From positions 5,040,001 through 5,072,000 of the forward strand of contig NC_010296.1 in NCBI RefSeq assembly GCF_000010625.1: a stretch of DNA of 32,000 nucleotides. Direction: 5' to 3'. The stretch's first letter is position 1, and each line of letters begins with the position of its first letter. The DNA comes from Microcystis aeruginosa NIES-843. Lineage in GTDB: Bacteria > Cyanobacteriota > Cyanobacteriia > Cyanobacteriales > Microcystaceae. Of this stretch, positions 1 through 27,897 are shown one piece after another. Position numbers and translations under genes: made by a program. Under the pieces are notes generated by a model that made no database searches, was not told the origin of the DNA, and worked only from the letters and a program-made list of their open reading frames with translations.

Positions 1-919
1 CACAAGAATTAAAAATAGCCAGCGTTAAACCCTTCTCGAGCGCGGTTTTCAGTGCCTCTTCTAACTGTGATATCGTCAAACTATTGTGGGTTGAATTCTC
101 ATTAATATATATTCGACCCGTTTGTCCCTGGGTTTGACTGTGACCGGCAAAAAACAGGATATCCCACCCTTCAGGCTGCCATAATTGAGTATTGAACTCC
201 TGGCGTGAGGGGTTGGCCAGGAACTTAACTGACCCATCCTGCAACCGCTGAAGTAAGCGGGTTTCTGTGGCTAAATCAATGCCAGAGCTATTGCCTAAGA
301 CTGCTAAAATCCTGACTTTCTGGTCAGTTTTTGCTGACTTCAGAACATTTCGATAGTGGTACTCTGGTTGACTCAACGCCATTTCCGCTTGGGGATAATC
401 CTCAAAGAAATGCCAGCGATGCCAGGGAAGAGAGCGCAATTCCAGATCGTTAGTTTCAATCATGACTCGGATGGGAGCGGATGAGTCGAGTCGCGATCGC
501 AGTTGCAGTTCAATGGGGAGAAAACCCTCTGATTTCAGCCAAGTATTGATGCTTGCCTGTAGCTGCTGGCACAACTCATCAAAACTGACCTGAGAAATAT
601 TGGTAATGCCTGCTTCACTGATTTCTAGTTCACCAACTTCTACGAGAGAAGCTGAAGATAGATGTCCTGGTTGGGATATTATGGGATGGCGTTGTCCGCC
701 CGTAATGCGTTCAGTTTCGCTGCGCCCAAGGCGATCGCATAGTCCCCGATAAACAAGCTGCCAATTCCGATACAGTTCCCCTAAAGCGGGTGCGGCGGGC
801 AACGTGCCGATAAATTGCTCTGGCCTCGGATTGCCGTCCGTCCATAATTGAACGGTAACTCGCGGAAATCCCTGATACAAATTCCCACTGCCTAGATTAA
901 TAATCACTGACTTGTTCAT
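1..919 (-). CDS. CHAT-domain (caspase-fold) protease, N-terminal ~306 aa; the 3' part runs off the window start
   Basis: Absent from the ORF track because it is open-ended. Manual minus-strand translation from ATG at 919-917 gives MNKSVIINLGSGNLYQGFPRVTVQLW...IRVMIETNDLELRSLPWHRWHFF...GWDILFFAGHSQTQG...GLTLAIFNSC with no stop down to position 1. The LPW(E/H) motif, His in FFAGHS and Cys in IFNSC match the CHAT/caspase catalytic dyad pattern. Confidence 0.75.
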   Translation of the reverse strand, partial: MNKSVIINLGSGNLYQGFPRVTVQLWTDGNPRPEQFIGTLPAAPALGELYRNWQLVYRGLCDRLGRSETERITGGQRHPIISQPGHLSSASLVEVGELEISEAGITNISQVSFDELCQQLQASINTWLKSEGFLPIELQLRSRLDSSAPIRVMIETNDLELRSLPWHRWHFFEDYPQAEMALSQPEYHYRNVLKSAKTDQKVRILAVLGNSSGIDLATETRLLQRLQDGSVKFLANPSRQEFNTQLWQPEGWDILFFAGHSQTQGQTGRIYINENSTHNSLTISQLEEALKTALEKGLTLAIFNSC

Positions 920-1152
920 TTCAGGTAGTAAGGTAAGTTGGCTCTTCGTTACTTGTTATGGTTCGATAGGGGGGCATAAATCGACTAAATCCTTATCTGG
1001 CAAGAGACTTAATTGATTAGTTCGCTCTAGAGCAAAAACAATTGACAAAAATCGCTAAATGCCTTTCTATATAAGGGTTCCATCCCTTATAACCCCCGTC
1101 CATTGCATAACACAAACCGAAGAGCCGGTAAGTTTTGCCATCGGCGCATAAT

Positions 1153-1391
1153 ATAGATGTCAGCCCTTTCATCTTAATACAGGAAAACGGAAGAAAACTG
1201 GAGAATGCTTTAAATTTGGGAAGGGGGGGATGCGATACGCCCTGACAGCAAGGCTTTTCAGCTATCAGGAGAGTAAAGCTTTTCTCAAAATGTATCAGTG
1301 CGATACATCTTGTCCACAAAACCCAAGAGAGCCATCCAGAATTTAGAACCGTAAGTGTATAGGTTGATTTTGCTCACAACTACTAACGAGT
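1153..1391 (+). promoter_or_regulatory. Copy A of a duplicated bipartite intergenic element (module 1 at 1153-1201, module 2 at 1338-1391)
   Basis: About 80-85% identical by eye to 7509-7556 and 7636-7688, in the same order and orientation. It lies between the divergent CHAT (-) and GH104 (+) genes. Module 2 contains GTGTATAGGT and CAACTACTAACG blocks. On the minus strand module 1 reads CCTGTAT(T)AAG, which is -10-like. The repeat itself is solid; its function is inferred. Confidence 0.6.
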
Positions 1392-1520
1392 GTAACGGTT
1401 CGCAGTCGTATGAGGTACATTATCACGGACTACAAACCAGTCTAAGCAAGGCTTTGCCTGTATCTCACTCAATTGCGTATCGCTATAACTGAATCGAGAT
1501 CTAACAAAAGGAGAAATTAC

Positions 1521-2231
1521 ATGGCAGAATTAAGTTTGACCGCCCTTCAAGATACCGTGATCAAGCGATTTACTATCGATAGCACGGATATTGACAATCC
1601 AGGAGAAAAGTTTGATTTAGAAAAAGGCGAAAAAATTGGTATCAACTGGTATCGACCAGCTTCCAAGAATCATTGGGAATTTGAACTCAAATCTCCCCAC
1701 GGAGGCTTTTTCAATTGGTACGTTTTCCAGCCGCACGTTCAGATTAACGATCCCACGCCTGGACATACTGAAGCTTCAGGAAGCAAACAAGTCATGGCTT
1801 TCTTAGATGCCATTGCTTGGCCAGAAGGGACAGATAAGAGCGTTGGAGATGGTGTAAGGACAGGATACAATATCATGTTCACTGGCCAGACATTTTCTAG
1901 TTATGCGGATCATCCCCGTAAGGTTATATGTTCAGGAGGATTATGCTCGACAGCAGCAGGGCGATATCAATTTCTGAACACAACTTGGGATGGAGTTGCC
2001 AAAAAACTAGGCTTGAAAGATTTTTCTCCTAGTAATCAAGACAAAGCCGCCATTCAACTCATTAAACAACGAGGTGCATTAGACGAAATAGAAAAAGGTA
2101 AAATCAGGGCAGCCTGTGACATCCTAAGCTGGGAGTGGGCTTCTTTACCACCAGGTCGTTATGGTCAGCCCACAGTTACCTACGAGAAAATGGAGCAACT
2201 GTTTAAACAGGCGGGGGGAGTACTAGGGTAG
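1521..2231 (+). CDS. GH104 lytic transglycosylase (phage lambda R endolysin-like) with a ~95-aa N-terminal domain of unknown function
   Basis: The C-terminal 150 aa align residue by residue with lambda R as I recall it: AFLDAIAWPEGTD, YADHPRK, STAAGRYQFL, LGLKDFSPSNQD, IKQRGAL, WASLPPGRYGQ, FKQAGG. The catalytic Glu is retained in AWPEGT. I prefer ATG at 1521 (AAGGAG at 1508-1513) over the track's TTG at 1473. No signal peptide is visible. Confidence 0.9.
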   Translation: MAELSLTALQDTVIKRFTIDSTDIDNPGEKFDLEKGEKIGINWYRPASKNHWEFELKSPHGGFFNWYVFQPHVQINDPTPGHTEASGSKQVMAFLDAIAWPEGTDKSVGDGVRTGYNIMFTGQTFSSYADHPRKVICSGGLCSTAAGRYQFLNTTWDGVAKKLGLKDFSPSNQDKAAIQLIKQRGALDEIEKGKIRAACDILSWEWASLPPGRYGQPTVTYEKMEQLFKQAGGVLG

Positions 2232-2453
2232 TAAAACTTAGTGCGATCACCTCTTTCTAAGTGGATTGATACGGCTAATTTAGTGTATTTAATTGGGTGG
2301 GCAATGCCCATCAAATCTCGAACATCTAATACCTCATTTTAGTCGTGTCAATCAACTACAAAATTCTACTTGTGATGATCGAAAAAATTGATCACACGAG
2401 AAACAAGAGGGCAGGGTAAATTTAGTATACTTCCTATTGTCTAAGGCTATTGT

Positions 2454-2786
2454 CTAAGGGGCTGAATGGTATTTTCCCGTAAGCATGATCCGTGATTGGT
2501 GAATCCATCCTATTTGCTCTTTTCCGCAGGCAATAGTTGAATACCAGCCATTTATTGGACTACCTAGCCCATTCACACTATTGGTAAAGTGATACACAGA
2601 AATTGTGACTTTTTTGGTAATGCGACAGATAATTTTTCCATTAGGTTGAGATCGAACATTAGAAGGGATTTTCTGGACTATTGCGTATTCTGCCATGACA
2701 GTTGAAGCAGATAATGGTTGATTGAATGTCAATCCCAGATTCATTAAAGTAAGAAACGTGATTTTCAAAAAGAAGTAAGTATTCAT
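2454..2786 (-). CDS. Small secreted SH3b-like (bacterial SH3) domain protein
   Basis: Hydrophobic N-terminal signal-like segment (FFLKITFLTLMNLGLTF...SAS), followed by NVRSQPNGKIICRITKKVTISVY...NGWYSTIACGKEQIGWIHQSRI, which fits the SH3_3 pattern. Confidence 0.6.
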   Translation of the reverse strand: MNTYFFLKITFLTLMNLGLTFNQPLSASTVMAEYAIVQKIPSNVRSQPNGKIICRITKKVTISVYHFTNSVNGLGSPINGWYSTIACGKEQIGWIHQSRIMLTGKYHSAP

Positions 2787-2922
2787 GAGGTGTTGTCGAG
2801 TAAAGATTAATTATAACTTGAGCGTTGTTCAGTTACGATCAAAAGCCCAAACTGGCTCATAGCGGAAACAGCGAGCATGGCCAATAAACACCATACAGCT
2901 TACCTCAAGATGTCGGGAGAGC

Positions 2923-3090
2923 CAGTCACTGAGATCGCCGATCTGGTAGGTTGGGTTGACGTGAGGAAACCCAACAACCAATCAAAAGTTATCTTGTAGT
3001 ATCAAAGATACTAATCTTGATCGATAAAGTTACTGAACATCAGTGAGATCGCCGCTCTTGTAGGGTGCATTAACGAAGTGTAATGTGCCT
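2923..3090. repeat. Two copies of a short dispersed cyanobacterial repeat, each ending in a hairpin
   Basis: CACTGAGATCGCCGATCTGGTAGG (2927-2950) matches CAGTGAGATCGCCGCTCTTGTAGG (3041-3064) at about 21/24 positions. The first copy is followed by the hairpin GGTTGGGTT-N-AACCCAAC and the second by GTGCATTAAC-N-GTAATGTGC. Confidence 0.6.
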
Positions 3091-3248
3091 TAATTTATGG
3101 CAGAAACCCGTCATCTTCTGTAAAATAAATTGAAGATAGGATTTTTCTTCGCCTATCATAAATCCATCCCCTAAAATAACCATAAGGAGACCACATCACT
3201 CAATCTAAACTACTTACAGGAGAAGGAAAAGTCGGGACATACGGCGAC

Positions 3249-3602
3249 TTGTTAAAATTGGGTCGTAGAGGAGATAACTTAACACCTCATCATGTACCAT
3301 CCAACGCTTACATGAAAGCTAAAATCAAAGATTACACAACTAATCAAGGAATAGCTATCATGATGGAACATTTATCCCCCGGAAAAGGAGGTCATCATCG
3401 TCACACCTTATCTTATGGTAAAAGTCCAGACTTAACCCTTTCCCCTCGACAAACCTTAGCGCAAGAAGTTTGGGATATTCGCTCTATTTATCTGCGTCAA
3501 AGATTATATGATACAGATATTAGAAAGCGTCTGCAAGAACTCATTAAACTTAATAAAACAACTTGGTTAACCTTTTTTGATAAAGGAGTTATAAACCCAT
3601 GA
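3249..3602 (+). CDS. Orphan polymorphic-toxin-like C-terminal module (HH-motif, possibly HNH/EndoVII-fold); probably a displaced toxin tip without its own ATG
   Basis: The frame is open from 3186 (GDHITQSKLLTGEGKVGTYGDLLKLGRRGDNLTPHHVPSN...) with no ATG; only TTG at 3249 is available. It has PHHVPS and GGHHRHT His clusters. The segment is AT-rich, and there is a 4-nt ATGA overlap with the next ORF. Family assignment is uncertain. Confidence 0.4.
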   Translation: MLKLGRRGDNLTPHHVPSNAYMKAKIKDYTTNQGIAIMMEHLSPGKGGHHRHTLSYGKSPDLTLSPRQTLAQEVWDIRSIYLRQRLYDTDIRKRLQELIKLNKTTWLTFFDKGVINP

Positions 3603-4027
3603 ATTTACTAAAAATCTTACAAGAAAATCGTTTACTGAAAACACCTCAAGAAATCAAGTTATTTGAGGAAACTTTAGAAAAAATTGCTAAATATCCTAAG
3701 GATGACAATCTAAAGGAATTACATCTTATCTTAGATGATAATTGTGAACATCCTGAAATTATGTTTAGTTTAGTTCATTTTTTAGAAGATTTTGATCTAC
3801 AAAAACAAATACCAGCTTTTATTGAAGTGATTCCTCAATTAATGATCGCTGCACCAGAATGGACAAAAATCATTCACTATCGCATCATGAATGATGAATC
3901 TGCTTGTAAACTTTATCACAATACTCTGGAATTAGCCAATCAAAAGACCCCTCATTTCTTATATCAACTTTTACTAGAAAGTGTTAAAAATCATCTCAAT
4001 TCACCTTCGTACCAAATACGCTTTTAA
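3599..4027 (+). CDS. Putative cognate immunity protein (small, acidic, helical)
   Basis: Its start overlaps the upstream stop (ATGA at 3599-3602). It is 142 aa with no signal peptide or TM segment and shares the AT-rich composition of its partner. This architecture is typical of toxin/immunity cassettes. I do not recognise a family with confidence. Confidence 0.4.
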   Translation: MNLLKILQENRLLKTPQEIKLFEETLEKIAKYPKDDNLKELHLILDDNCEHPEIMFSLVHFLEDFDLQKQIPAFIEVIPQLMIAAPEWTKIIHYRIMNDESACKLYHNTLELANQKTPHFLYQLLLESVKNHLNSPSYQIRF

Positions 4028-4043
4028 AAGTAGAGTAACCCTA

Positions 4044-4113
4044 TACCTCTGTTGCCTGTTTCCTGTTGCTTTTGCCTGTCTCCATGAGTAGCCTATGATA
4101 AACGGATTTAGTA
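4044..4113 (-). repeat. Solo terminal-inverted-repeat-like remnant related to the IS5-type element at 13600-14635
   Basis: The reverse complement reads ACTAAATCCGTTTATCATAGGCTACTCATGGAGACAGGCAAAAGCAACAGG. The IS left end reads CTAAATCCGTTGAGTATAGGCTAGTTATGAGGAGAGGCAAAAGGCAAGAGG. The remnant abuts the vapC stop codon. Confidence 0.55.
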
Positions 4114-4545
4114 TCATTGGGGTACCTGTACTTTATAAGCAATCTCAGAACCCAGCCTTGTAAAATGCTTTGGGTTGAGGGTTAACAGAACATCAGCCTG
4201 AGATTTGAGGACTGCTTGGGCGATAAGGGCATCAAAGATACCACCGCCAGGAAGCTGACGTTGCACCATTAGGTCAATAGCTGCCGTGTAATCTTCAGCA
4301 GTCAGCGAAACAGTATCGAAGGTCTGTAGGTTATCGCGGATCAAGTTTTGGGCGACGGCAGGGGAGATTTTGGTTTTGGGAATGCGCGTTAGAACAGAAT
4401 AGAGTTCTGCTAGGGTATGCGTGGCAATAAGTCCCTGAATTTGCTGGGATTGGGCTTGAAGGAGAAAGGGCAAGCAGGCCGAATGATGAGTGTGTCCAGT
4501 CAATAGGGCAGCGATGAGAGCAGAGGTATCAAAGAGACATTTCAT
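4114..4545 (-). CDS. vapC: PIN-domain ribonuclease toxin, VapC family
   Basis: MKCLFDTSALIAAL (N-terminal Asp), TLAELYSVL (Glu), GIFDALIAQA (Asp) and LTLNPKHF match the PIN acidic signature. It overlaps the upstream antitoxin gene by 4 nt. Confidence 0.85.
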   Translation of the reverse strand: MKCLFDTSALIAALLTGHTHHSACLPFLLQAQSQQIQGLIATHTLAELYSVLTRIPKTKISPAVAQNLIRDNLQTFDTVSLTAEDYTAAIDLMVQRQLPGGGIFDALIAQAVLKSQADVLLTLNPKHFTRLGSEIAYKVQVPQ

Positions 4546-4799
4546 GCAGGCAATTGGCTTTGAATGCGTTCCTCGCGGAGGTCATCAATAAGGGTATCGA
4601 GATGGCCGAGGGGTGGGGTTTCTAGCACTAAGGCACTGCCTTGACGTTGGACTTTAGCTTCTTGCTCCAAGGGTTGTAGGATGATGCAGCCTTGTCTAAC
4701 CTCAAGATTGAGGGATTGGGCTGTGGTGATGCCGAGTTGTTGACGGATTTCTAGAGGAATTTCTAGTTTTCCGCTGTCATCGATCGCAATTGCCGTCAT
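4542..4799 (-). CDS. vapB: AbrB/SpoVT/MazE-fold antitoxin, VapB type
   Basis: GKLEIPLEIRQQLGITTAQSLNLEVRQGCIILQP is a swapped-hairpin AbrB-like motif. The protein is 85 aa and sits immediately upstream of, and overlapping, the PIN gene. Confidence 0.8.
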   Translation of the reverse strand: MTAIAIDDSGKLEIPLEIRQQLGITTAQSLNLEVRQGCIILQPLEQEAKVQRQGSALVLETPPLGHLDTLIDDLREERIQSQLPA

Positions 4800-4811
4800 G
4801 GAACGCTCCTA

Positions 4812-4861
4812 GGGATAGAACGAAAGTTTGGCTCTTTCAATAACGCTATAAATTCTATCCC
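4812..4861. promoter_or_regulatory. Inverted repeat in the vapBC upstream region (possible VapB operator)
   Basis: GGGATAGAA (4812-4820) and TTCTATCCC (4853-4861) are perfect 9-bp arms, starting 13 nt upstream of the vapB start. The function is inferred from the known autoregulation of vapBC loci. Confidence 0.3.
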
Positions 4862-4910
4862 CTGTAAGGTAGTTTTGCCTGTGTAGAAAACGCCCATGAT
4901 ACCCCAACGC

Positions 4911-5987
4911 CTAGAGTTCAAAATTCTCGCAGAGGCAGGTGTCACCGAGACTAACCACAATACTAAAGGGGATACCAGAGCGCCCTTTAAAAGATTTAAG
5001 CTGAATATAGTTATCTTGCGTTCTGGAGCCCACTTCTTGAAGCTTTTTGCCTGCCTGAGAAAGCAACGTTAAGGCGATCTGGGGTGGCAGATATCGCTCC
5101 TCACCCGCCGGATGTAACTGAACCAGCACAGATAGCTGATTATCGGCTTCTTCTGTAACATTCACCAACAAGACCACTCTCTGTCCTTGCAACTCCATCC
5201 CCAAGTCAATAAGCTTCCCGCGTTTTGCACCCTCTCTCTGATTCCGAGGACTCCAAGCAAGATGAACTTCTGGACTAAACAGATCGTCGATCGCTTGCCA
5301 TCCTGCTGCAAAGACCCCCTGTATCCACTGTCCTAACTGGATAGGAGTTTCTTGAGAAGCCGTTAATGTGGTTTCAGAGATTGCTTCAGGCGTTGCGGTA
5401 TGCTCCGTTGAAATGACGGGCAATAGTATTGAGGCAGGTTCTAGAAAATCACAGTAGAACAATAAATGATTGGGTTCAGGATCGAAAACAGATAGGGGAA
5501 TTTGATAATAATCGTTTTGTAAACCATCACTGACCCGATGGCAATAATTCATGAGTCGGTCAGATCGCAAAAAGCCTCGAATCATCACTCGCTGCTGCTC
5601 TTCACAGACCTCAAGCAGGACATAGAAATGAGCGACAAGAGCCGGCTGTTCGATCGCTTCTCTGGGAATTTCCACTACTTCATCTAGAACCTGCTCTTTG
5701 ACAATTAAATTTAGCTTAAATTCATCAATTTTAAGGTTGTAAACAGCACCAATATGATTGATACATTGAGTTCGATCGAGGCAGTGTGATGGAGCGCGTT
5801 TCTCTAGCCATTGCTCAAAACCCAATAGTGCCAGGGCATTCAGATAGAGTTGCCACTGACCCGCTTCATCGACTGAGGGACTGGCCAGGGGATTGACTAG
5901 CGCCTGCTCAAACTGTTCTGGTTCAAGCCTTATGGCTTCAGGTCGGCTAAGATTTAAATCTGGTGGGATCGCTCTTAAGCTAAACAT
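4911..5987 (-). CDS. DUF1822-family protein (cyanobacteria-restricted, function unknown)
   Basis: WQLYLNALALLGFEQWLEKR and the overall ~360-aa layout match my recollection of DUF1822. The likely start is ATG at 5987-5985, forming a TAATG overlap with the stop of the upstream sigma-like gene. The track's longer ORF to 6035 starts inside that gene. Confidence 0.65.
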   Translation of the reverse strand: MFSLRAIPPDLNLSRPEAIRLEPEQFEQALVNPLASPSVDEAGQWQLYLNALALLGFEQWLEKRAPSHCLDRTQCINHIGAVYNLKIDEFKLNLIVKEQVLDEVVEIPREAIEQPALVAHFYVLLEVCEEQQRVMIRGFLRSDRLMNYCHRVSDGLQNDYYQIPLSVFDPEPNHLLFYCDFLEPASILLPVISTEHTATPEAISETTLTASQETPIQLGQWIQGVFAAGWQAIDDLFSPEVHLAWSPRNQREGAKRGKLIDLGMELQGQRVVLLVNVTEEADNQLSVLVQLHPAGEERYLPPQIALTLLSQAGKKLQEVGSRTQDNYIQLKSFKGRSGIPFSIVVSLGDTCLCENFEL

Positions 5988-7459
5988 TACGAAACTCCTT
6001 GTGTAACCTTTGTACACTCTTCTAAGTAAAAGCAAAGCTGTTGAGCATATACACTTTTCATCAGACGATTCTTTCCCGCTTGAATTTCTTCAAACGCTTC
6101 CTGAAATATTTCTGCATCTGCCAGCGCCTCGATTTGCTTGGCTAAATTTTCTAAATAATCGGGTTGAGGAGGAAGAGCAGTCAGTCCTTTCTCTTCAGCT
6201 TTCTTCAGCATTTGGTCAAGCACTTGTCGAATTGTCAATGTCCGAACAGTGTTAATTAACTCTCCCGGATTCAACACCCGTCTTGCTTGCGCCCAACCAG
6301 ACATTTTTAATAAATCAGCAATCTCTTTCAGTGCGATGCCCTGAGAATAATAGAGGTGTAATCCTGGAATAAATCGATCGGCGAAAGCGGCATACCCTTT
6401 GCTTTTTTTTAAATAAGTAATGCGATCGCTAATTGCCTGCTTAATGGAATGAACTAAGGCAAGTTGAAGCTGTTTGTGGAAGAATTCCAACATTTCTTGT
6501 TGCTCTTGCTGCTCCACATTATATTCACTGGCAATATCCTGCGGCAGCTCTGAGCGAATCAGGCGATCGCCTGTCTCTGGATCTTCAACTTCTAACGGTT
6601 CTCGATGGCTCCAAAGGTCAAATTGTCTAAGTTGTAGTGCCACTCTTCGCAGTTCTGTGATCAATTGGTTGGGCTGAATTGTGATATTTCGTGCTTTTAA
6701 ATAAGTCACCATCTCTTGAAGTTGCCCGGTTGTGGGATCTAGACAGCGTTTCGTACCCTGGTGTTGCTGATGCCTGTCTCGACGATAGACAGCGTGGAAG
6801 GCGGCAATTAAGTGGCGATCGCGTTCTGCCAGTTGTTGCAATTGTTTCGAGCGAGTGCGATTGAGTAGAGCCCAGTCGCTCAATTGTTTGAAGCCAAACT
6901 CGGATAAAAAATTCTTTAATTCTGGATTTTGTTTGGTTTGTAAATAAGTCCAGTTATCTAAGCTCATACTGGATTGAGCGTTGGGCTTAAAGGTTCGCAG
7001 AATTTGCAGTGAGAAACATTGATAAGCCGTTGTTTGAGGCTTGCCAGTGGGGTCTAAGGTGAGATAGGTTTTGCCATCTGAGTCTAAAACCATCAGCGTT
7101 TTCCCGTCGTCATTGAGGACAAACGGCAGCAAATCTCGGTAAGTAAAGGAGCGATCGTCTCCGAACAAATGATCGATTTTGCGGCAGGCGTTGAGAATCG
7201 GCTCAGAAACGTAACACCGCAGGCATAGTCCTGCGTGCGCTCTTTCTGTGGTATCAACTGCTGGAGCTTGAAAGCGGGATAGCAAATCAGTCTGGAGATT
7301 TCTCTGTTGGGAGCGATCGCCCCTATCCTCCTCTGCCTCACTTAACCCTTGGCTTTGAAAAAAATCATTTGCCAACGGGAGGAAACAACGCTTGTATCCA
7401 GTGCGATCGCTGGCAGGGTCAATGCGCCAAAGGTTGCAGTATCTTGATGCAGCACTCAT
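5987..7459 (-). CDS. Atypical long (490 aa) sigma-70-family-like protein
   Basis: It has a C-terminal region-4-like HTH (GLHLYYSQGIALKEIADLLKMSGWAQARRVLNPGEL) and an N-terminal stretch that could be a degenerate region 2 (CLRCYVSEPILNACRKIDHLF...FTYRDLLPFVL). It is coupled to a DUF1822 gene, a pairing I recall from cyanobacterial annotations. This was not verified by profile search. Confidence 0.55.
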   Translation of the reverse strand: MSAASRYCNLWRIDPASDRTGYKRCFLPLANDFFQSQGLSEAEEDRGDRSQQRNLQTDLLSRFQAPAVDTTERAHAGLCLRCYVSEPILNACRKIDHLFGDDRSFTYRDLLPFVLNDDGKTLMVLDSDGKTYLTLDPTGKPQTTAYQCFSLQILRTFKPNAQSSMSLDNWTYLQTKQNPELKNFLSEFGFKQLSDWALLNRTRSKQLQQLAERDRHLIAAFHAVYRRDRHQQHQGTKRCLDPTTGQLQEMVTYLKARNITIQPNQLITELRRVALQLRQFDLWSHREPLEVEDPETGDRLIRSELPQDIASEYNVEQQEQQEMLEFFHKQLQLALVHSIKQAISDRITYLKKSKGYAAFADRFIPGLHLYYSQGIALKEIADLLKMSGWAQARRVLNPGELINTVRTLTIRQVLDQMLKKAEEKGLTALPPQPDYLENLAKQIEALADAEIFQEAFEEIQAGKNRLMKSVYAQQLCFYLEECTKVTQGVS

Positions 7460-7508
7460 ACTACGCTCTCCCGAAGTTTGTTGAGCTTGCGATTAGCTCA
7501 CCTGATCA

Positions 7509-7688
7509 ATAGATGTCAGCCATTTTAGCTTATACAGGAAATCGGAAAAAAACCGGGGAGATTTAGATTTAGACAAGATGGCTCAGTTCCAGATTTTCCA
7601 GAACTGATCATCCCTTGCCAGACCTAAGAATTTCTAGAATTTAACCTTCAAGTGTATAGGTCGGTTTAGCTAACAACTACTAACGGGT
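7509..7688 (+). promoter_or_regulatory. Copy B of the duplicated bipartite intergenic element (module 1 at 7509-7556, module 2 at 7636-7688)
   Basis: See copy A. It lies between the divergent sigma-like/DUF1822 operon (-, ATG at 7459) and the secretin-like gene (+, ATG at 7749). Confidence 0.6.
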
Positions 7689-7748
7689 AGAAGGAAAGCA
7701 AATGAGCTTAACTTCCCAAACAAACTCAATTTTTTACAGGAGAAAATC

Positions 7749-9881
7749 ATGTTCACTATTTCTAAGCAATCCATGTCATTCCCGCGTAGAAAGTTATCTC
7801 GTCAGCTTGCTCTGGGTCTAAGCCTCAGTATGATTGTAAGCTTTGGGGGGGAAGTATCTGCTCAAACCGCAGATATTAATATTAGAGTTAGTGAGCCTCA
7901 AGGAGGAGGGGCGAAATGTGAAGATCTTGACTATACGCAACAAAAATCATTCAAGCAAGCATCTCAATCCGTGAAACTCTACTATATCCGTTCCGCATCT
8001 GATCTTAAAGGGATACTAGCTCAGATTGCATCTAAAAATCCTTGCATAAAAGGTACGGTCATTGAAGCTCAAGGTGATAACACTATTGTTTTATATGGCA
8101 ACGAGGAACAGAGAAAAGCATTGCAACGAGTCATTACAATTTTAGATCTGCCCCGTGAGAGTGTCAATCTGGAAATGTGGGGAATACTCATATCCAGCAG
8201 CAACCCTGGTAAACTGGCTGAAGTCATGCGCCAAGTCAACAAAGAAATTGATACGACTCAACAATTACTGCAATATACTTATCAAAAGTTTGAAGAGTTT
8301 GCAAAAGATGTCGATATCGATATCGATGCGGATGATGACAATTCTAAAATGAGCTATAGCTCATTATTGCAACAAACTCTTGGATATCGGACAGCATTAG
8401 ATAAAGATCGTTCCCTATCTATGATGGATATCTTACTACGCATCAACGCGGCGAAAGATCCCTATTGTAATAATAAGGCTGCCGCCAAAAAACTTGATAT
8501 ACTTTTTCAAGAAGAGCGTTATAAACCCTATATAGAAGCTTTAAAAAAAGAACAGAAAATACCATTTGGAAACTACATACAATTGGGTTTACTACAAGAA
8601 AAAAGTTCAAACTTAAATCAAAATTGTGAAATTAAAAGTAAAGATCGAGAAAAAGTATTGCTCAAAAACTTGAATAGACGAAGAGCCGTGCTGGATTTTG
8701 CCCTACAGTACTCTAATCTAATGAACAATCCGGCGGGTTTTGATCCCGAAGCTTTGCAACAATCTGCCGAAACCCTGAACTCAGTTTTGCAGCCGATTGT
8801 TCATGCTATCAACCGTGACGTAGAAGAGTTATTCATTGAACCCACCTTAGCAAGAATCCAAAGCATCGTGAGGGATTATAAGAAGGTGTCCTATGCAGAA
8901 GTTGGTAAAACCAGCGTACAGGGTTTAAATGGAATTAAATCGACAGTCACCTCAACAACAGTCAGTGCCTTTGATGAGACTGGCCCTCTAAGGTTGGATG
9001 AATTGTTCAAAACAGCTAGTGAGATCAATAATTTTTCTAAAGAGTTAATCCCTGCTCCTGCTGGAGCCAATACCGTCCCTAGTGCACCAGTGTTAAGTCT
9101 GATTGCTGCCCTCAGCAAAGATACATCGGCATGGCGAGCAATAACATCAGGTGTTTCAATGGAAATTACTCCGTCAGTGTTACGCAACAGTGCATCTGCC
9201 GAACTAGATATTAATTTTACTACTGGACCGACAAAAGATAAAGAGCCTGTGCCAGATCAGTTCACTGGAACGACAAGACTGCGCCCCCTATCCCGCATTA
9301 AGCAGAATACAGTATCGACGAGGGTTTATGTTAATACTCTAGATATTTTTGCCCTTTCCACCTTCAACAGTCAAACCACCGAAGATGGAGGACGCACCTA
9401 TATCCCTGTTATCGGGACAATCTGGCAGGGAGTATTTAGCGGTGTCCCAATCATTGGTCAACTGTTCAGTTGGAAAAACTCTCCTCAAAGTGTCCAGCAC
9501 CAAAGCATCGTACTGACAAATTCTTTTATTGTCCCTACGGCGATGGGATTAGCTACTTTGTATCAACAACAACATCAACAACAACATCAACCGTCGTCAC
9601 TGTCGTCGCCGCCGCCGAAGCCGCCAAGAATGAAGGATGAGGAATATGAGGAATATAAGCAATCTTATGAGCAATATAAAGCTAAATTACTTTACTATGA
9701 TCACTGTTACGCAGTTGAACAGTATATAATTAACCGTGAGGGTGAAATTGAGGAAGAAGAATCTTCTGGAGAACAAAAACAAAATTATAATTTTAATCAA
9801 CCTCTCTCATTCTCATCATTAGATAAAAAAATCAAAGATGTCTGCGGAAAGCCACCACAACCACCAGACTTTTATCGTTAA
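7749..9881 (+). CDS. Divergent stand-alone secretin-like outer-membrane protein
   Basis: Signal peptide (LALGLSLSMIVSFGGEVSA/QT). Secretin_N-like module (VKLYYIRSASDLKGILAQI...GTVIEAQGDNTIVLYGNEEQRKALQRVITILDLPRESVNLEMWGILISS). Secretin C-domain-like end (SGVSMEITPSVL...STRVYVNTLDIFALS...IPVIGTIWQGVFSGVPIIGQLFSWKN...SIVLTNSFIVPT). The middle ~280 aa and the Q/H/P/E/Y-rich tail are not canonical. AGGAG lies 8 nt upstream of the ATG. Confidence 0.65.
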   Translation: MFTISKQSMSFPRRKLSRQLALGLSLSMIVSFGGEVSAQTADINIRVSEPQGGGAKCEDLDYTQQKSFKQASQSVKLYYIRSASDLKGILAQIASKNPCIKGTVIEAQGDNTIVLYGNEEQRKALQRVITILDLPRESVNLEMWGILISSSNPGKLAEVMRQVNKEIDTTQQLLQYTYQKFEEFAKDVDIDIDADDDNSKMSYSSLLQQTLGYRTALDKDRSLSMMDILLRINAAKDPYCNNKAAAKKLDILFQEERYKPYIEALKKEQKIPFGNYIQLGLLQEKSSNLNQNCEIKSKDREKVLLKNLNRRRAVLDFALQYSNLMNNPAGFDPEALQQSAETLNSVLQPIVHAINRDVEELFIEPTLARIQSIVRDYKKVSYAEVGKTSVQGLNGIKSTVTSTTVSAFDETGPLRLDELFKTASEINNFSKELIPAPAGANTVPSAPVLSLIAALSKDTSAWRAITSGVSMEITPSVLRNSASAELDINFTTGPTKDKEPVPDQFTGTTRLRPLSRIKQNTVSTRVYVNTLDIFALSTFNSQTTEDGGRTYIPVIGTIWQGVFSGVPIIGQLFSWKNSPQSVQHQSIVLTNSFIVPTAMGLATLYQQQHQQQHQPSSLSSPPPKPPRMKDEEYEEYKQSYEQYKAKLLYYDHCYAVEQYIINREGEIEEEESSGEQKQNYNFNQPLSFSSLDKKIKDVCGKPPQPPDFYR

Positions 9882-10107: not shown

Positions 10108-12279
10108 ATGAACACTACGAATTCAAAACAGAAACTAAACTACATTCCACAGATCATCATCGGCATCGGCATAATTGCGATCGCTGTAGTGGTTTGGTGG
10201 CACATTCCTGATTCTTTCTGGAAATATCTTTTTTTCTTGCGTGCACCTATTCTCTGGGGTTTACTGCTGGTGACACTCCCTCTAATAGCTACCTTATGGC
10301 TGCCAGCCATGCTGAGAAATTTATTTGTTCTTCGTGGTCCGTGGCAACTTATCTCTGTAATTGTCAGTGCAAACATGGCGGCAATAGGGGTCATTATTAA
10401 TGCCTATATGCTTCTCAAAGGTGCGCCAGATCGTTTTGGACTATCACCGTGGCTCGAAATTTCTGACATCTGGCAATATGGGTTGGCGATCGCTTTGAGT
10501 TTACCGATCTGCGTCACCTCTTATAAGCTTTCAAAAGAGGAAATTAAAGAAAAGAATCCCATCCAAGGAGTGATTTTCAGCGTGTTATTGAGTTTGGTGC
10601 TGTTGTTTGCAGTGATTCAGACGAAAACCTGGATATTTACTAACTTTGCTAACAATAAGTTACTCATTAGTTTCGTTGAATTCATTACCAGACATAAAAC
10701 TGAAGGCTATATTATAGGAACACAGCCAAAACCACAGCAATTCCTTGAAGGTCATCTGAGTAACATCGCTTTTTTTATAGTTGCCTTCATCGTCTATGGC
10801 ATCATTGGTTGGAAATTTCAGCCACAATCTCAACCATCCGACAAGAAAAAAGAAGCGGCTGCCCTAATGTATGTGATGCTAATCATCATGATGATAGCAC
10901 CCTTGTCTGGAAGCCTAACCTTCTATTTCGATTACTATCGCGTTCCTGTCTTTCTGCTCTTTGTGGTTATTGTTGCTTTGATGTATGCGCTGTTTAAGGT
11001 GGATCACTTTTTTGAATTAAACTTAAATGAGGCAAACAAATACGATCCCAAGGATTTCAAAAAGGCAATAGAAAAACGACTCGAGTATCAAGAAGAAGAA
11101 AAGGAAAAGACCTTAGTAGTTGTCTGTGCGAGTGGGGGCGGCATTCAAGCCGCAGGCTGGATAGTTCAAGTCCTGACGGGATTACAAGATATGCTAGGTA
11201 ATTCGTTTACCAAGTCAATTGGTTTTATTAGCTCTGTTTCAGGTGGTTCAGTTGGAACGATGTATTATCTCGATCGCTTTGCCGATAAAGGATATCCTGA
11301 GTCTAAGGAGTTTGAAAATATCTTTAAGAGTGCTACTGAAGATAGTTTGGATGCGGTAGGTTGGGGATTAGCTTATCCTGATTTATGGCGCATTATTGGG
11401 CTTCCTTTTTTCGCTCCTAAAATGTGCGATCGGGGAAAAGTAATAGAGACAGATTGGCAAGGAGAGTTAAAAAATCCCAATAGCAAACAATTTTTATCTA
11501 CTTGGAGCGAACAAATTTTAAATGGTAAAATTCCCATCCCTATTTTCAATGCGACTCTGGTTGAAGATGGTCGTCGATTTCTAATTTCACCGATGACTTT
11601 TTGTAAACCTAGTAGCAACAAATCAGTGGATTTTAACACCCTTTATGCGGGATATGACATTGATGTTGTCACAGCCGCAAGGCTCTCAGCAACTTTTTCT
11701 TATATATCGCCTATTTCTCGCTATGTTGGTGAAAATAAAAACCAGAAGGGGAAAGGGAAGGGGAATTATCATATTGCCGATGGTGGCTATTTCGATAATT
11801 CTGGTATGGTAACAATGGTGGAATGGCTCAATGAATGGCTAGACCCCCAGAAAGGACTTAACATTAAACGAGTTCTTTTGTTACAAATTAATGCTTTTCC
11901 TAAGACTGAACCCTCCAAAAATGAGAGTGGCGGTGGAGGTTGGTGGCAGGCGATAATAGGTCCTTTACTGACCTTATTCAGCGTCCGTGATACTACCCAG
12001 TTGTCTCGAGTTTCTACTGAAGTAGAACTTCTTCAACAGCGATGGAAAAATCAAGTAAAGATCGCATATTGTCCTATCTTTTTTCCAAAGAATGGTAAAA
12101 ATAGTGAAAATAAACCACCTCTGTCTTGGCAACTAACGGAAAAGCAAAAACAAAATATTAAAAACGGATGGTGCGGAATTAAGAAGGAAATTGGGGAGCA
12201 AATTGGGGAGCAAATTGGGGAGGAGTGGAAAAAATGGGGATTTGAAGACCCATCTCAAAAATCGACCAATGAGAAATAG
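10108..12279 (+). CDS. Patatin-like phospholipase fused to an N-terminal ~8-TM membrane domain
   Basis: About eight hydrophobic segments lie in aa 15-300. The patatin hallmarks follow: oxyanion-hole CASGGGIQAAG, nucleophile GxSxG in VSGGSVG, and catalytic Asp in IADGGYFDNSG. Confidence 0.8.
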   Translation: MNTTNSKQKLNYIPQIIIGIGIIAIAVVVWWHIPDSFWKYLFFLRAPILWGLLLVTLPLIATLWLPAMLRNLFVLRGPWQLISVIVSANMAAIGVIINAYMLLKGAPDRFGLSPWLEISDIWQYGLAIALSLPICVTSYKLSKEEIKEKNPIQGVIFSVLLSLVLLFAVIQTKTWIFTNFANNKLLISFVEFITRHKTEGYIIGTQPKPQQFLEGHLSNIAFFIVAFIVYGIIGWKFQPQSQPSDKKKEAAALMYVMLIIMMIAPLSGSLTFYFDYYRVPVFLLFVVIVALMYALFKVDHFFELNLNEANKYDPKDFKKAIEKRLEYQEEEKEKTLVVVCASGGGIQAAGWIVQVLTGLQDMLGNSFTKSIGFISSVSGGSVGTMYYLDRFADKGYPESKEFENIFKSATEDSLDAVGWGLAYPDLWRIIGLPFFAPKMCDRGKVIETDWQGELKNPNSKQFLSTWSEQILNGKIPIPIFNATLVEDGRRFLISPMTFCKPSSNKSVDFNTLYAGYDIDVVTAARLSATFSYISPISRYVGENKNQKGKGKGNYHIADGGYFDNSGMVTMVEWLNEWLDPQKGLNIKRVLLLQINAFPKTEPSKNESGGGGWWQAIIGPLLTLFSVRDTTQLSRVSTEVELLQQRWKNQVKIAYCPIFFPKNGKNSENKPPLSWQLTEKQKQNIKNGWCGIKKEIGEQIGEQIGEEWKKWGFEDPSQKSTNEK
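12190..12225 (+). repeat. 12-bp in-frame tandem repeat (ATTGGGGAGCAA x2 plus a diverged third unit) in the patatin gene 3' end
   Basis: Read directly from the sequence; it encodes IGEQIGEQIGEE. Confidence 0.9.
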
Positions 12280-13270: not shown

Positions 13271-13333
13271 TTGATAGCTGAATGCTGATCGCTGATGACT
13301 GATCGCTAACGACTGATGACTGATGACTGATTA
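13271..13333. repeat. Heptanucleotide microsatellite, about 9 units of CTGATNN
   Basis: TTGATAG CTGAATG CTGATCG CTGATGA CTGATCG CTAACGA CTGATGA CTGATGA CTGATTA. This is the reverse-complement family of the repeat at 18273-18321. Confidence 0.85.
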
Positions 13334-13599
13334 CTAGAACTCTTGCAAATTAATTATATGTTATAATGGTGGGTTAACTAATTTTCCCAAAAAAATAGTT
13401 AATTAGCGCATTTGTTCTGAATGAAAACCTGAAGTTTAACTTTTAACCCAAAACTCTTTAGATATGCTTTAATTTGGTTGTCAAAACCTCTTTATTTAAG
13501 CAGCACAAACTATCTCAATTATAAAAATTGAGAATAAATTCTCCTTGACTTGATTAATGTTTGGCAACTTTTAATAAGTTGCTATACCTATCCCTAATA

Positions 13600-14635
13600 C
13601 TAAATCCGTTGAGTATAGGCTAGTTATGAGGAGAGGCAAAAGGCAAGAGGCAAAAGGCAAAGGGGAAAATAAATAATCAGTTTTTCATAACCAGATTTAG
13701 TATAACTCATAGTTATAAACAGCCGCCAACAGGTTAATTCTTAAACTATATCTTCGACGACGATTCCGATATTTACAGGATAAGATTTTCAAGATTTTGA
13801 GTTTCCTATTTATAGGTTCAATGATAATCCTTTCTTTGGCTAAAGCCTTGTTATAAACCTTCTCTAACTCTGTTAATTTTCTATTTTTCGGTTTCTTTTT
13901 CGGTGTATAACTATTACTATGGTATGCAGCTATTCCCTAATAACCACTGTCTTCTCTGCTAGTAGTTAAAGGATGAAAACGAATTCGACTTTTTTTAAAT
14001 AAACTAAAATCATGACCTCTACCTTTCCCACAAAAGACACAGATAATTTCCCCGGTATTTTTATCAGCTACTAATTGGGATTTTCAAGTATGATAACCTC
14101 TTTTACCCCCAAAAAAATCTTTCTGTTTCTTTTGGGGGCGTTCCATGGGAGTTTCCGTTACATCCATTACCGTTACGACCGGTATCTCTGCTTGATTTAG
14201 TAGAGATTTTTTTCCTTTTAAACGGAAGTTTCCCGATTGTAAAAGCATTTTTTCCGTCTTATTTACAATCCGACCTATAGTTGATTCTGATATTTGACCG
14301 CTTGTACCAATGTGAAAAGATGTTCTATATTCTCGCCAATATTCTAACGTTACTAAAACTTGTTCTTCTATAGATAGTTTAGGTTTCGGTCCCCTTTTAG
14401 ATGCTGAATTAGATTCGGCTTCAACACTTTTTACTGATTCTACCATCTTTCTGTATGTTTGTTTATACACACCGAAACGGCGTTTGAATTGTTCATCTGA
14501 TAAGTTTTGATAATCCATATTTTTGCTAATAAACATAGCAAAAGTATAGATGATACTAAATCCCGTTATTAAAGACTGATTATCTATTCCTCCTTTTGCC
14601 TATCCTGATATGTAGCCTATACTCAACGGATTTAG
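13600..14635 (-). mobile_element. IS5-family (DDE_Tnp_4 / Harbinger-like) insertion sequence, 1036 bp, with long structured TIRs; inactivated
   Basis: The outer 23-bp ends CTAAATCCGTTGAGTATAGGCTA (13600-13622) and TAGCCTATACTCAACGGATTTAG (14613-14635) are perfect inverted repeats. Similarity continues inward through GGCAAAAGG tracts to ATACTAAATC(T/C)(G/C)G (13650-13705 vs 14553-14600). The element encloses the transposase pseudogene. Confidence 0.8.
13697..14536 (-). pseudogene. IS5-family transposase with two in-frame premature stops
   Basis: The track ORF 14084-14536 (…RGPKPKLSIEEQVLVTLEYWREYRTSFHIG…GGKRGYHT*) continues in the same frame after TGA at 14086-14084 as KSQLVADKNTGEIICVFCGKGRGHDFSLF…EDSGY*GIAAYH…NKALAKERIIIEPINRKLKILKILSCKYRNRRRRYSLRINLLAAVYNYELY*. 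The total is about 279 codons, ending at TAA 13699-13697. Confidence 0.8.
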
Positions 14636-15067
14636 GATGATTTCCTGACCTAAGATCACATTTTATTCTTTTTTCCACTTCCATCTAAAAATTGAGAAAA
14701 AAGCCAAACCCTCCATTATACAATAAAAAAATTATGCAAGAGGTCTAGTGAAGTCGCTGGTTTCGCTCTAATCTTTACGGGGCAAGTCTTTCAACCGATT
14801 TTACTCCTTCACTCCCGAAAAATTGAGCGAACGATGAGTCCTGACTCGGAGAATACTGACTCGGAGAATACTGACAGCTTTCTTTTGCCTTTGGCCTTTT
14901 TACCTAAAATGTCGGATGAATGCCCCCGCTACATTTTTCGACAAGACATCAACCTTTGCGGGGGATGAAATCCGACCAGGATATTAACTGCGAAGCACGA
15001 TTTTAATACTACCATCTATGGGTAAACTGTGTTATAATTAAACTATCCAATGGTCGAGGATTAATCA

Positions 15068-16354
15068 ATGCTAGTCGTAGAAGCCAAGTTAAAAAACGGG
15101 ACACCAGAACAATACCAAAGACTAGATGAAGCAATTAGGACATCTCAGTTTGTGCGTAACTCTTGTGTTCGTTATTGGCGGTCCAATCAAGGGACAACCC
15201 GCAATGATCTCCAAAAACTTTGCTCGGTACTAGCTAACAATAAAGAGACACCTTGGGTTAATAAGCTTAACTCCCAAGCTCGTCAATCGGCTGCTGATAG
15301 AGCCTGGCAATCAATTAGTCGGTTTTACCAGAATTGTCATGCTAAGATACTTGGGAAAAAGGGTTTTCCTCGGTTCAAGAAGCATAGTCGTTCGGTTGAG
15401 TATAAACTAACAGGCTACCAACTATCTGAGGATCGACGTAAAATCAGATTTACTGAAGGTTTTAAAGCAGGAGAATTTGATTTATGGTGTAGTCAAAAGA
15501 CATTAGTTTATTATTCAGAGCAACAGATTAAACGGGTAAGAGTTGTTAGACGTGCTGATGGTTATTATTGTCAGTTTTTGATTGACGTAGAACGGCAAGA
15601 ATACCATAAACCGACGGGACAAATAACAGGAATTGACTTAGGGTTAAAGGAATTTTATACCGATGCCCAAGGCAATACTGTAGAGAATCCACGTTATTTA
15701 AGAAAGTCAGAAAAACGACTGAAAAAAGCACAAAGGAGATTATCAAAACAATTTCGCAAAGGAAAGAAACAGTCTAACAACTATCACAAGCAACGGATAA
15801 AAGTAGCTAGGCTTCATCTTAAAGTATCAAGACAACGTAAAGACAAAGCAATTAAAGACGCTTTGGCGTTAGTCCAGTCTAATGATCTGGTAGTCTATGA
15901 AGCTTTAAAGGTAAGAAACTTAGTCAAAAATCGTCAGCTGTCTAAGTCGATTAGTGATGCTTCTTGGTATCAATTCACTGAATGGTTTGAATTTTTTGCC
16001 AAGATTTATCGGATTGTTTGTGTTGCTGTTCCTCCTCATTTCACTAGCCAAGATTGTTCAGTTTGTGGGACGAGAGTTCAAAAATCATTAAGCACTAGAA
16101 CTCATCAATGTCCTAACTGTAAAACAATCTTAGATAGGGATCATAATGCAGCAATCAACATTCTTAAAAAAGGGTTAAAATATTTGGGAAATCATCTCAA
16201 CGGTACTGTTGGGCAAACAGAAACCGACCCAAACGCCTTGGGAGAGTCCGGCCTCTGGATTCTTAATGGAGACATTGAGAATCTAAGCTGTCTCGTTGAA
16301 CAAGGAATTTCCGATAGTGATAGGTCAAGAATCCCCCGTCACAGCGTAGCTTGA
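15068..16354 (+). CDS. tnpB: TnpB (IS200/IS605-family OrfB, RuvC-like RNA-guided nuclease); no tnpA partner nearby
   Basis: RuvC triad candidates are ITGIDLGLKE (Asp), LVVYEALKV (Glu) and LDRDHNAAINI (Asp). A zinc ribbon CSVCG...CPNC is present. The N-terminal QYQRLDEAIRTSQFVRNSCVRYW is typical of cyanobacterial TnpB. A TATAAT box lies at about 15042 upstream. Confidence 0.9.
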   Translation: MLVVEAKLKNGTPEQYQRLDEAIRTSQFVRNSCVRYWRSNQGTTRNDLQKLCSVLANNKETPWVNKLNSQARQSAADRAWQSISRFYQNCHAKILGKKGFPRFKKHSRSVEYKLTGYQLSEDRRKIRFTEGFKAGEFDLWCSQKTLVYYSEQQIKRVRVVRRADGYYCQFLIDVERQEYHKPTGQITGIDLGLKEFYTDAQGNTVENPRYLRKSEKRLKKAQRRLSKQFRKGKKQSNNYHKQRIKVARLHLKVSRQRKDKAIKDALALVQSNDLVVYEALKVRNLVKNRQLSKSISDASWYQFTEWFEFFAKIYRIVCVAVPPHFTSQDCSVCGTRVQKSLSTRTHQCPNCKTILDRDHNAAINILKKGLKYLGNHLNGTVGQTETDPNALGESGLWILNGDIENLSCLVEQGISDSDRSRIPRHSVA

Positions 16355-18272: not shown

Positions 18273-18321
18273 TCAGTTATCAGTTATCAGTCATCAGTCA
18301 TCAGTTATCAGTTATCAGTCA
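18273..18321. repeat. Heptanucleotide microsatellite, 7 units of TCAGT(T/C)A
   Basis: TCAGTTA x2, TCAGTCA x2, TCAGTTA x2, TCAGTCA. It begins immediately after the HTTM gene stop codon. Confidence 0.95.
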
Positions 18322-27848: not shown

Positions 27849-27897
27849 TGTTGATCACCTATAGATTTGAACCTAATTACTAAAAAATAATGGCAAT

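Follow-up and report, generated by a model that had tools for sequence, protein, structure and literature searches.

Divergent pairs of a conserved, directional DNA motif at a regulator-DUF1822-caspase locus of Microcystis aeruginosa NIES-843

Repeated modules between divergent genes

The DNA analysed here is a stretch of 32,000 nt from Microcystis aeruginosa NIES-843 (contig NC_010296.1, positions 5,040,001 to 5,072,000, hereafter the window), which carries genes for a 490-aa sigma-like protein, a DUF1822 protein and a CHAT (caspase-like) protein on the minus strand, and genes for a lysozyme homologue, a secretin-like protein and a patatin-like phospholipase on the plus strand (Table 1). A preliminary description of the window had pointed to two noncoding modules, each present in two intergenic regions between divergent genes, and it had the flanking genes right: CHAT and sigma-like/DUF1822 on the minus-strand side, the lysozyme homologue and the secretin-like gene on the plus-strand side. 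We find that these modules are a conserved, directional DNA motif which exists in two classes (A and B) and is arranged as divergent pairs.

Both modules lie where they had been placed, module 1 at 1153-1201 and 7509-7556 and module 2 at 1338-1391 and 7636-7688, and the identity between copies, ~85% by pairwise alignment and repeat finder, agrees with the earlier estimate. Comparison of the two intergenic regions with the same methods gave 86% identity over 28 nt for one repeat (D16) and 87% over 39 nt, ungapped, for the other (D13). When each module was written as a degenerate pattern, only two places matched in the 32-kb window, even with three mismatches allowed, while the chance expectations from 100 dinucleotide shuffles were 0.00 and 0.01. 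Profile hidden Markov models (HMMs) run at relaxed thresholds likewise returned no third copy of the modules in the window, as had been reported.

The second class A copy ends 49 nt upstream of the ATG of the sigma-like gene (7459), and the class B copy facing the other way ends 65 nt upstream of the secretin-like gene. In the first intergenic region, class B ends 134 nt upstream of the ATG of the lambda-lysozyme-like gene (1521), and the class A sequence of this region is also found in other Microcystis strains. No motif was found upstream of the patatin gene in the profile HMM search of the window; this gene follows the secretin-like gene and may be co-transcribed with it.

Table 1. Positions of the motif copies and the genes around them, in window coordinates
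Feature	Coordinates	Strand	Evidence and remarks
CHAT (caspase-like) gene, 5' part	1..919	-	Pfam CHAT at gathering score; gene runs off the window
Insertion of ~4 kb between DUF1822 and CHAT	920..4910		Absent in Aphanocapsa; blastn of L092 against the window, gene calls of L001, Pfam
Class A motif, copy 1	1153..1184	-	TCCTGTATTAAGATGAAAGGGCTGACATCTAT; weak HMM match, 13.7 bits; aligned to copy 2
Class B motif, copy 1	1353..1386	+	AAGTGTATAGGTTGATTTTGCTCACAACTACTAA; class B HMM E 4e-07 (locus set), 1.1e-08 (window)
Lambda-type lysozyme (lytic transglycosylase) homologue	1521..2231	+	PDB 1am7/3d3d, E 1e-37; predicted class B target
DUF1822 gene	4911..5987	-	Pfam DUF1822, E 3e-64
490-aa sigma-like protein gene	5987..7459	-	Sigma-70 region-4-type helix-turn-helix at ~residues 355-400; four conserved Cys in the N-terminal half
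Class A motif, copy 2	7509..7539	-	TCCTGTATAAGCTAAAATGGCTGACATCTAT; nhmmer E 2e-05 against the whole locus set
Class B motif, copy 2	7650..7683	+	AAGTGTATAGGTCGGTTTAGCTAACAACTACTAA; class B HMM E 5e-05 (locus set), 1.5e-06 (window)
Secretin-like gene	7749..9881	+	Weak matches: Pfam Secretin, Secretin_N; NCBIfam SctC, GspD; predicted class B target
Patatin-like phospholipase gene	10108..12279	+	Pfam Patatin, E 3.5e-04; downstream of the secretin-like gene

One motif family in two classes across cyanobacteria

The two modules had been taken for separable units, but they are inversely oriented copies of a single motif family. Read on the minus strand, module 1 is CTGTATAAGCTAAAATGGCTGACATCTAT, while module 2 reads GTGTATAGGTCGGTTTAGCTAACAACTACT on the plus strand, and the two share TGTATA.G-N6-T.GCT.ACA.CTA.T in the same register. 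This corresponds to a 31-base motif, TGCATAAGyT-N7-CTnnCAnCTAT, of which the Microcystis form has TGTATA.

A scan of related genomes for the modules, as had been suggested, was run over 79 genome loci around homologues of the 490-aa protein (52-99% identity, many cyanobacterial genera). Iterated nhmmer searches, seeded with the four window instances and using E<=0.01, converged on 96 instances, and the motif recurs in 70 of these loci; reversed-sequence decoys gave 0 motif matches. The consensus over all 96 instances is aAcTGCATAAGtT.Aaa..gCTggCAtCTAT, with the information concentrated in the blocks TGCATAAG.T and C...CA.CTAT and in a conserved A three bases beyond, so that the motif can be written as an upstream block TG(C/T)ATAAGyT and a downstream block CTnnCAnCTAT(nnA). 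Throughout the 96 instances TGCATAAG and CA.CTAT hold one register, with a 1-nt departure in only two kinds of instance, and the sequence logos show an asymmetric motif without a dyad. The class A consensus, aaCTGCATAAGcT.AAAa.gCtGgCAtcTATttATtt, is module 1 of the window, and the class B consensus, aaaAGTGCATAAGTtgATTT..Ct.aCA.CTATTAA.Aa, is module 2. Aligned with each other, the class A and class B weight matrices scored 15.5 at offset 0, with 4.2 as the next best score and 6.7 for the reverse complement, and the classes are related but distinct sub-classes.

The block structure also changes how the minus-strand reading of module 1 is to be understood. The preliminary description had called TGTATAAG -10-like; a second conserved block, CTGACATCTAT, lies 16-17 nt downstream of it, and TGTATAAG is more likely an upstream, -35-like block. 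The minus-strand CCTGTATAAG, which had been placed about 50 nt before the sigma-like ATG, is actually 71 nt away (the distance of 49 nt applies to the module's far end), and is more likely the upstream, -35-like block than a -10.

The two classes differ in their position with regard to genes. Class A is found upstream of the regulator gene in 57/79 genomes (E<=0.01), which is the placement of copy 2 in the window, and in 46 of these 57 its end is separated from the start codon by 45-59 nt (median 55); it is kept where the regulator proteins are only 52-60% identical. In a Rivularia/Calothrix group a copy is instead located 25 nt upstream of the DUF1822 gene. Class B gave 54 matches in 35 loci, and all except one of these are outside long open reading frames (ORFs), although such ORFs make up ~80% of the DNA. 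It is mostly co-oriented with the next gene (43/47), with a median distance to the start of 87 nt and a range of 3-789 nt, and a mixed model of both classes gave a similar picture (84/88 co-oriented). Divergent A/B pairs are present in 19 loci, with class B up to 1.2 kb upstream of class A and sometimes only ~20 nt from it, and the bipartite layout is therefore ancestral to the locus rather than peculiar to the window. The duplication proposed earlier stands for the additional copy in the window, which looks like a genuine one and accompanies the 4-kb insertion, whereas the idea of a purely local layout does not, as the divergent pair recurs in 19 other genomes. The surrounding intergenic DNA is otherwise unalignable across genera, with the motif kept in the same gene context.

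An unusual arrangement was seen in Scytonema sp. HK-05 (locus L036, 7415-7701), where four 99%-identical 72-nt tandem repeats, each with one class B motif, are located upstream of a single 287-aa gene divergent from the regulator gene, and form a putative multiplied promoter array.

Listing the genes downstream of class B, based on mechanical ORF calls, gave a set of predicted targets enriched for secreted lytic enzymes and CHAT/caspase genes. Cell-wall and secreted proteins are represented by a LysM-GH19 chitinase, a LysM-3D protein, three LysM-CAP proteins, a GH75 protein and a Tlde1-like protein, the proteases by trypsin-like, astacin-like and PatG-type subtilase proteins, and other enzymes by a DUF900 alpha/beta hydrolase. 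Switch and regulatory genes (CHAT, CHAT-CHASE2, a response regulator and an AraC regulator) are also found, as is, along with members of further families, a Nif11-domain protein. The class B sequence of the window fronts different cargo in other Microcystis strains, including small secreted proteins, and it therefore appears to be a portable control element for exchangeable, mostly secreted or lytic genes. In one of these strains (L087, 114-3597) class B precedes a gene for a 1118-aa Peptidase_C14 orthocaspase fused to an alpha/beta hydrolase, and in another (L086, 1441-2250) it precedes a gene for a CAP-domain protein, which has taken the place of the lysozyme gene except for a truncated N-terminus.

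The candidate regulator and competing explanations

The 490-aa protein, which is 99% identical to Microcystis proteins and belongs to a regulator family of 580 clusters at 50% identity, certainly carries a sigma-4-type helix-turn-helix (HTH). Sigma70_r4 was matched in 9/20 close members, weakly (best E 0.024), and among 63 divergent members the best values were 8e-06 for Sigma70_r4_2 and 1.8e-04 for Sigma70_ECF. A shallow profile found nothing among PDB sequences, while a deeper one matched HTHs of DeoR/SorC-family regulators (E 5.7e-05) and SigF region 4 (E 0.04). With hhalign against E. coli RpoE, which is a weak test, the HTH was aligned with region 4.2 only, without significance, and an exhaustive representative search gave only family members among the top 150 matches, with no link to canonical sigma factors. 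The same gene is labelled an 'ECF sigma factor', that is, of the extracytoplasmic function (ECF) type, by Kaur, Iyer, Burroughs and Aravind (eLife 2021, PMC8195603); PADLOC had no model for any protein of the locus. The N-terminal half contains four Cys residues (79, 82, 92 and 239, in LCLRC...C and KRC.DP) which are invariant or nearly so in close members, three of them being more than 90% conserved across divergent members, and they may form a metal or redox site.

Given its conservation, position and direction, the motif is very probably a cis-regulatory DNA element of the regulator-DUF1822-caspase system. More specifically, we interpret the modules as promoters set back to back, which serve a regulon specific to the locus and are probably recognised by its own sigma-4-HTH protein, and give this reading a probability of roughly 0.6. 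Each intergenic region would then contain two divergent promoters, or promoter-proximal operators, of one motif family. TATnnA (motif positions 29-34) could serve as the -10 and CATAAG (6-11) as the -35, with a spacer of 17 nt; in an alternative register, GCATAAG-N16-CTAT, the spacing would fit the ECF type. Transcription is predicted to start ~10 nt after CTAT in either register, so that the regulator gene would have a leader of ~45 nt, and GGGAGAG precedes its ATG in the window. Class A would drive the sigma-like/DUF1822 operon and normally the CHAT gene too, and in the window the additional class A copy (copy 1) would drive a CHAT gene severed from the operon by a 4-kb insertion; class B would drive the variable cargo, in the window the lysozyme and secretin-like genes and perhaps the patatin gene. 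The 490-aa protein would read the motif by means of its sigma-4-type HTH, giving an autoregulated, locus-specific regulon. The DUF1822 gene is translationally coupled to it, its ATG (5987) overlapping the stop codon of the sigma-like gene as TAATG, and its product may be a partner or antagonist, while the CHAT protease may be an upstream switch.

Alternative sigma factors that regulate themselves are classically recognised by one motif copy upstream of the regulator's own operon and further copies upstream of target genes, and the motif is distributed in this way between the regulator operon and the predicted targets. The comparative evidence favours the earlier suggestion of divergent promoters or operators tied to the sigma-like protein, with promoter activity and recognition being what we infer from it; that it is the locus's own protein which reads the motif seems to us, from the sequences compared, a little better than an even bet.

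Several observations weigh against this interpretation. All comparison loci were selected via the regulator gene, so that the association of motif and system is partly by construction. The pure class models detect each other's instances poorly (8/50 and 2/52), and given this the two classes could be read by different factors. The block spacing is compatible with sigma-70-family geometry, but as a geometric reading only, and the ECF signature (AAC in the -35, CGT in the -10) is absent from the consensus aaCTGCATAAGcT...CA.CTAT. With regard to the protein, Pfam gave no match to sigma region 2 in the 490 residues; sigma-A chains top the Foldseek list for the full-length AlphaFold model (predicted local distance difference test, pLDDT, 77), but with E 0.19, and the model of the N-terminal 300 aa (pLDDT 81.5) had no significant PDB fold match, with a sigma chain in 10th place (E 1.8). 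Hence the protein may be an HTH activator rather than a sigma factor. In the window itself, class A copy 1 is degenerate, with a 1-nt insertion within block 1, and it is located 233 nt upstream of the CHAT ATG (919) with a terminator-like hairpin in between. Expression of CHAT from this copy is the least secure step of the proposal because of its degeneracy (13.7 bits), this distance and the hairpin. The hairpin itself, ACCGGCTCTTCGGT followed by a T-rich tail (1116-1129, minus strand), is within the 233-nt leader of CHAT and may attenuate its expression.

In the main alternative explanation, the motif would serve a conventional transcription factor as its operator, while a housekeeping or group-2 sigma factor would recognise the promoter and only TATnnA would act as -10. 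The factor could be DUF1822, the 490-aa protein working as an HTH activator or repressor, or some further regulator. Such a role would fit a protein in which a sigma-4-type HTH is detectable without sigma-2 and whose best PDB sequence matches are DeoR/SorC-family HTH domains, and the TATnnA after the CA.C block does resemble a weak sigma-70 -10. We nevertheless regard it as rather unlikely, as the motif lacks a dyad, its blocks keep a fixed register that hardly varies in length between genera, its orientation with respect to genes is strict, and a region-4 HTH alone would not account for two-block conservation over ~31 nt. A scan for consensus sigma-70 promoters gave only chance-level matches in the first intergenic region and none in the second. 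Separately, the NtcA site (GTA-N8-TAC) was considered and rejected, there being no TAC 8 nt after GTA in either TGTATAAGCTAAAATGG or the consensus TGCATAAGyT.AAA.

The preliminary description had also offered a conserved 5' leader RNA as an alternative, and in that case (or in that of a small RNA) the modules would act post-transcriptionally. The nearly fixed distance of class A from the start codon would agree with this, as would the conservation of Microcystis sequence downstream of both classes, but we consider it improbable on several grounds. RNAalifold, applied to ~50 non-identical sequences per class, gave an empty consensus, without a single consensus pair on either strand, and single sequences fold about as stably as their shuffles (mean z -0.4 to -0.5). 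Nothing in the window reached the gathering score of an Rfam family, and the second intergenic region, searched with a limit of E<=10, had chance-level matches only (0.77-5.5). Also, class B is anywhere between 3 and ~790 nt from the next start. Stems of 5-7 bp bracketing class B in the window (GAACCGT...ACGGTTC, 1344-1400; CCTTC...GAAGG, 7643-7697) looked at first sight like covariation, but the hairpin flanking copy 1 is absent in other strains and copies, and such stems are missing from the other Microcystis copies and from other genera alike; these short inverted repeats are probably due to chance or strain-specific.

That the modules are a mobile or selfish repeat, such as a miniature inverted-repeat transposable element (MITE) or a repetitive extragenic palindromic (REP)-like sequence, or a recent neutral duplication without function, is very improbable: the two Microcystis intergenic regions do share sequence beyond the motif core, and the additional pair is in an inserted 4-kb segment adjoining a repeated element, but the repeat finder saw no terminal inverted repeats bounding the modules, the motif keeps its gene context across genera with otherwise unalignable intergenic DNA, and there was no MITE-like spread over dozens of unrelated loci when 241 million metagenome records were searched with a 22-base degenerate pattern for the Microcystis form of class B: 10 stretches matched, most of which blastn places at the same locus in other strains, plus an orthologous Aphanocapsa contig.

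Returning to the promoter interpretation, a more elaborate version of it is tentative and on present sequence comparisons doubtful. Here the 490-aa protein would be a non-canonical sigma factor, in which a region-4 HTH is combined with a novel Cys-rich N-terminal module instead of a recognisable region 2. It would be held in check by DUF1822, be released by CHAT and then recognise a 31-nt promoter of its own, in two grades. Class A would provide self-amplification, and class B would turn on self-lysis and secretion by way of muramidases, chitinase-like and CAP proteins, proteases, lipases, the secretin and further caspases. If true, the system would carry out, at the level of transcription, programmed cell death or a defence against invaders in cyanobacteria, bloom-forming Microcystis included.

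The inserted segment and comparison with known systems

In relatives (L001, L003) the gene order is regulator-DUF1822-CHAT(-nSTAND1-WD40), with gaps of tens of bases. The CHAT gene of the window, in which the CHAT match is preceded by ~150 residues, corresponds to the CHAT-nSTAND1-WD40 gene which in Aphanocapsa follows directly after DUF1822. Besides copy 1 of the A/B pair and the lysozyme gene, the ~4-kb insertion that separates the two in the window contains a toxin fragment with Imm30 and a PIN-domain gene that forms a VapBC-like pair with a small ORF upstream of it. The two Microcystis regions are alike beyond the motif core, with a T-rich stretch upstream of class A and AGAATTTA before class B, and GTAGAAGGAAAGCAAAT follows class B in most Microcystis strains. 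Other genera do not conserve these flanks, which makes the additional pair a true paralogous copy. In the simplest account, the duplicated pair restores class A control to CHAT and places the inserted lysozyme under class B.

Further features of the insertion and its surroundings were noted. Within the insertion (3249-4027), a 117-aa ORF overlaps the start of the Imm30 immunity gene (Pfam E 7e-42), which together look like an orphan polymorphic-toxin tip with its immunity gene. An element of ~46-50 nt, CTTTTGCC...AACGGATTTAGTAT, is repeated at 4069-4118, 13597-13643 and 14592-14642; two of the copies, 89% complementary, flank a 150-aa ORF as inverted arms, the ORF having a DDE-transposase HTH (HTH_Tnp_4), and the third lies where the 4-kb insertion has its edge, next to the PIN-domain (VapC-like) gene. 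It looks like a remnant of an insertion sequence or a MITE. Heptamer tandem repeats of the TGATCGC/TGATGAC type, at 13272-13335 and 18272-18321, are mutual reverse complements and bracket an IS605 OrfB/Cas12f-like (TnpB) gene (15068-16354) and a 617-aa gene. Finally, a gene for a 1385-aa WD40-repeat protein, the source of 123-nt DNA repeats, adjoins an AAA_35 ATPase gene at 23691-29313 on the minus strand; this is a second STAND-like conflict module in the window, and the profile search found no motif copy near it.

The gene triad of ECF sigma factor, DUF1822 (with TPR) and EACC2-caspase has been described by Kaur and coworkers, who suggest that "a multiplicity of genes" is under the control of the sigma factor (PMC8195603). 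In those passages of their paper that were retrieved by term, we found no cis-element, promoter classes or target list. In the searchable literature we came across no account of the motif, of its two classes or of the lytic and secretory genes predicted as targets: a search with the motif string returned unrelated primer sequences only, and searches for DUF1822 and EACC2 lead only to the same paper. The motif, its two classes and the candidate targets are defined here, while the gene system was already known from domain genomics.

The regulator-DUF1822-caspase triad is widespread in cyanobacteria and has so far been known only from protein-domain genomics. With a defined cis-motif, the proposed control of many genes by a sigma factor can be put in the form of a list of targets, open to scanning, and of reporter constructs. 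Secreted cell-wall hydrolases, proteases, lipase-like enzymes and caspases dominate among the predicted targets, and the motif gives an experimental handle on how caspase-like proteases might trigger cyanobacterial lysis or defence, including in toxic bloom-forming Microcystis. It is also a candidate for an orthogonal promoter/regulator pair in cyanobacterial engineering.

When compared with the EACC2-caspase system of PMC8195603, the window has the same triad of 490-aa HTH protein, DUF1822 and CHAT/caspase with variable C-termini, with the difference that the Microcystis triad is split by an insertion. With the MITEs and REP-like repeats of cyanobacteria the modules have in common that they are short, repeated, non-coding intergenic sequences, but they lack terminal inverted repeats, their copies are limited to the locus, and position and orientation are kept across genera. 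Like divergent regulator/target promoter regions, the arrangement has back-to-back sites, 20-1000 nt apart and facing one direction each, although here there are two directional copies of an asymmetric motif and not one shared symmetric operator. As with the autoregulated promoters of ECF sigma factors (sigma-E, sigma-W), there is a two-block motif with fixed spacing, a copy before the own operon plus copies before targets, and a regulator gene translationally coupled to a partner gene, and the region-4-type HTH would fit recognition of the upstream block. The differences from the ECF systems are a protein of ~480 aa without a detectable region 2, a motif without the AAC and CGT signature, a DUF1822 partner dissimilar to known anti-sigma factors, a CHAT protease in the operon, and two promoter classes.

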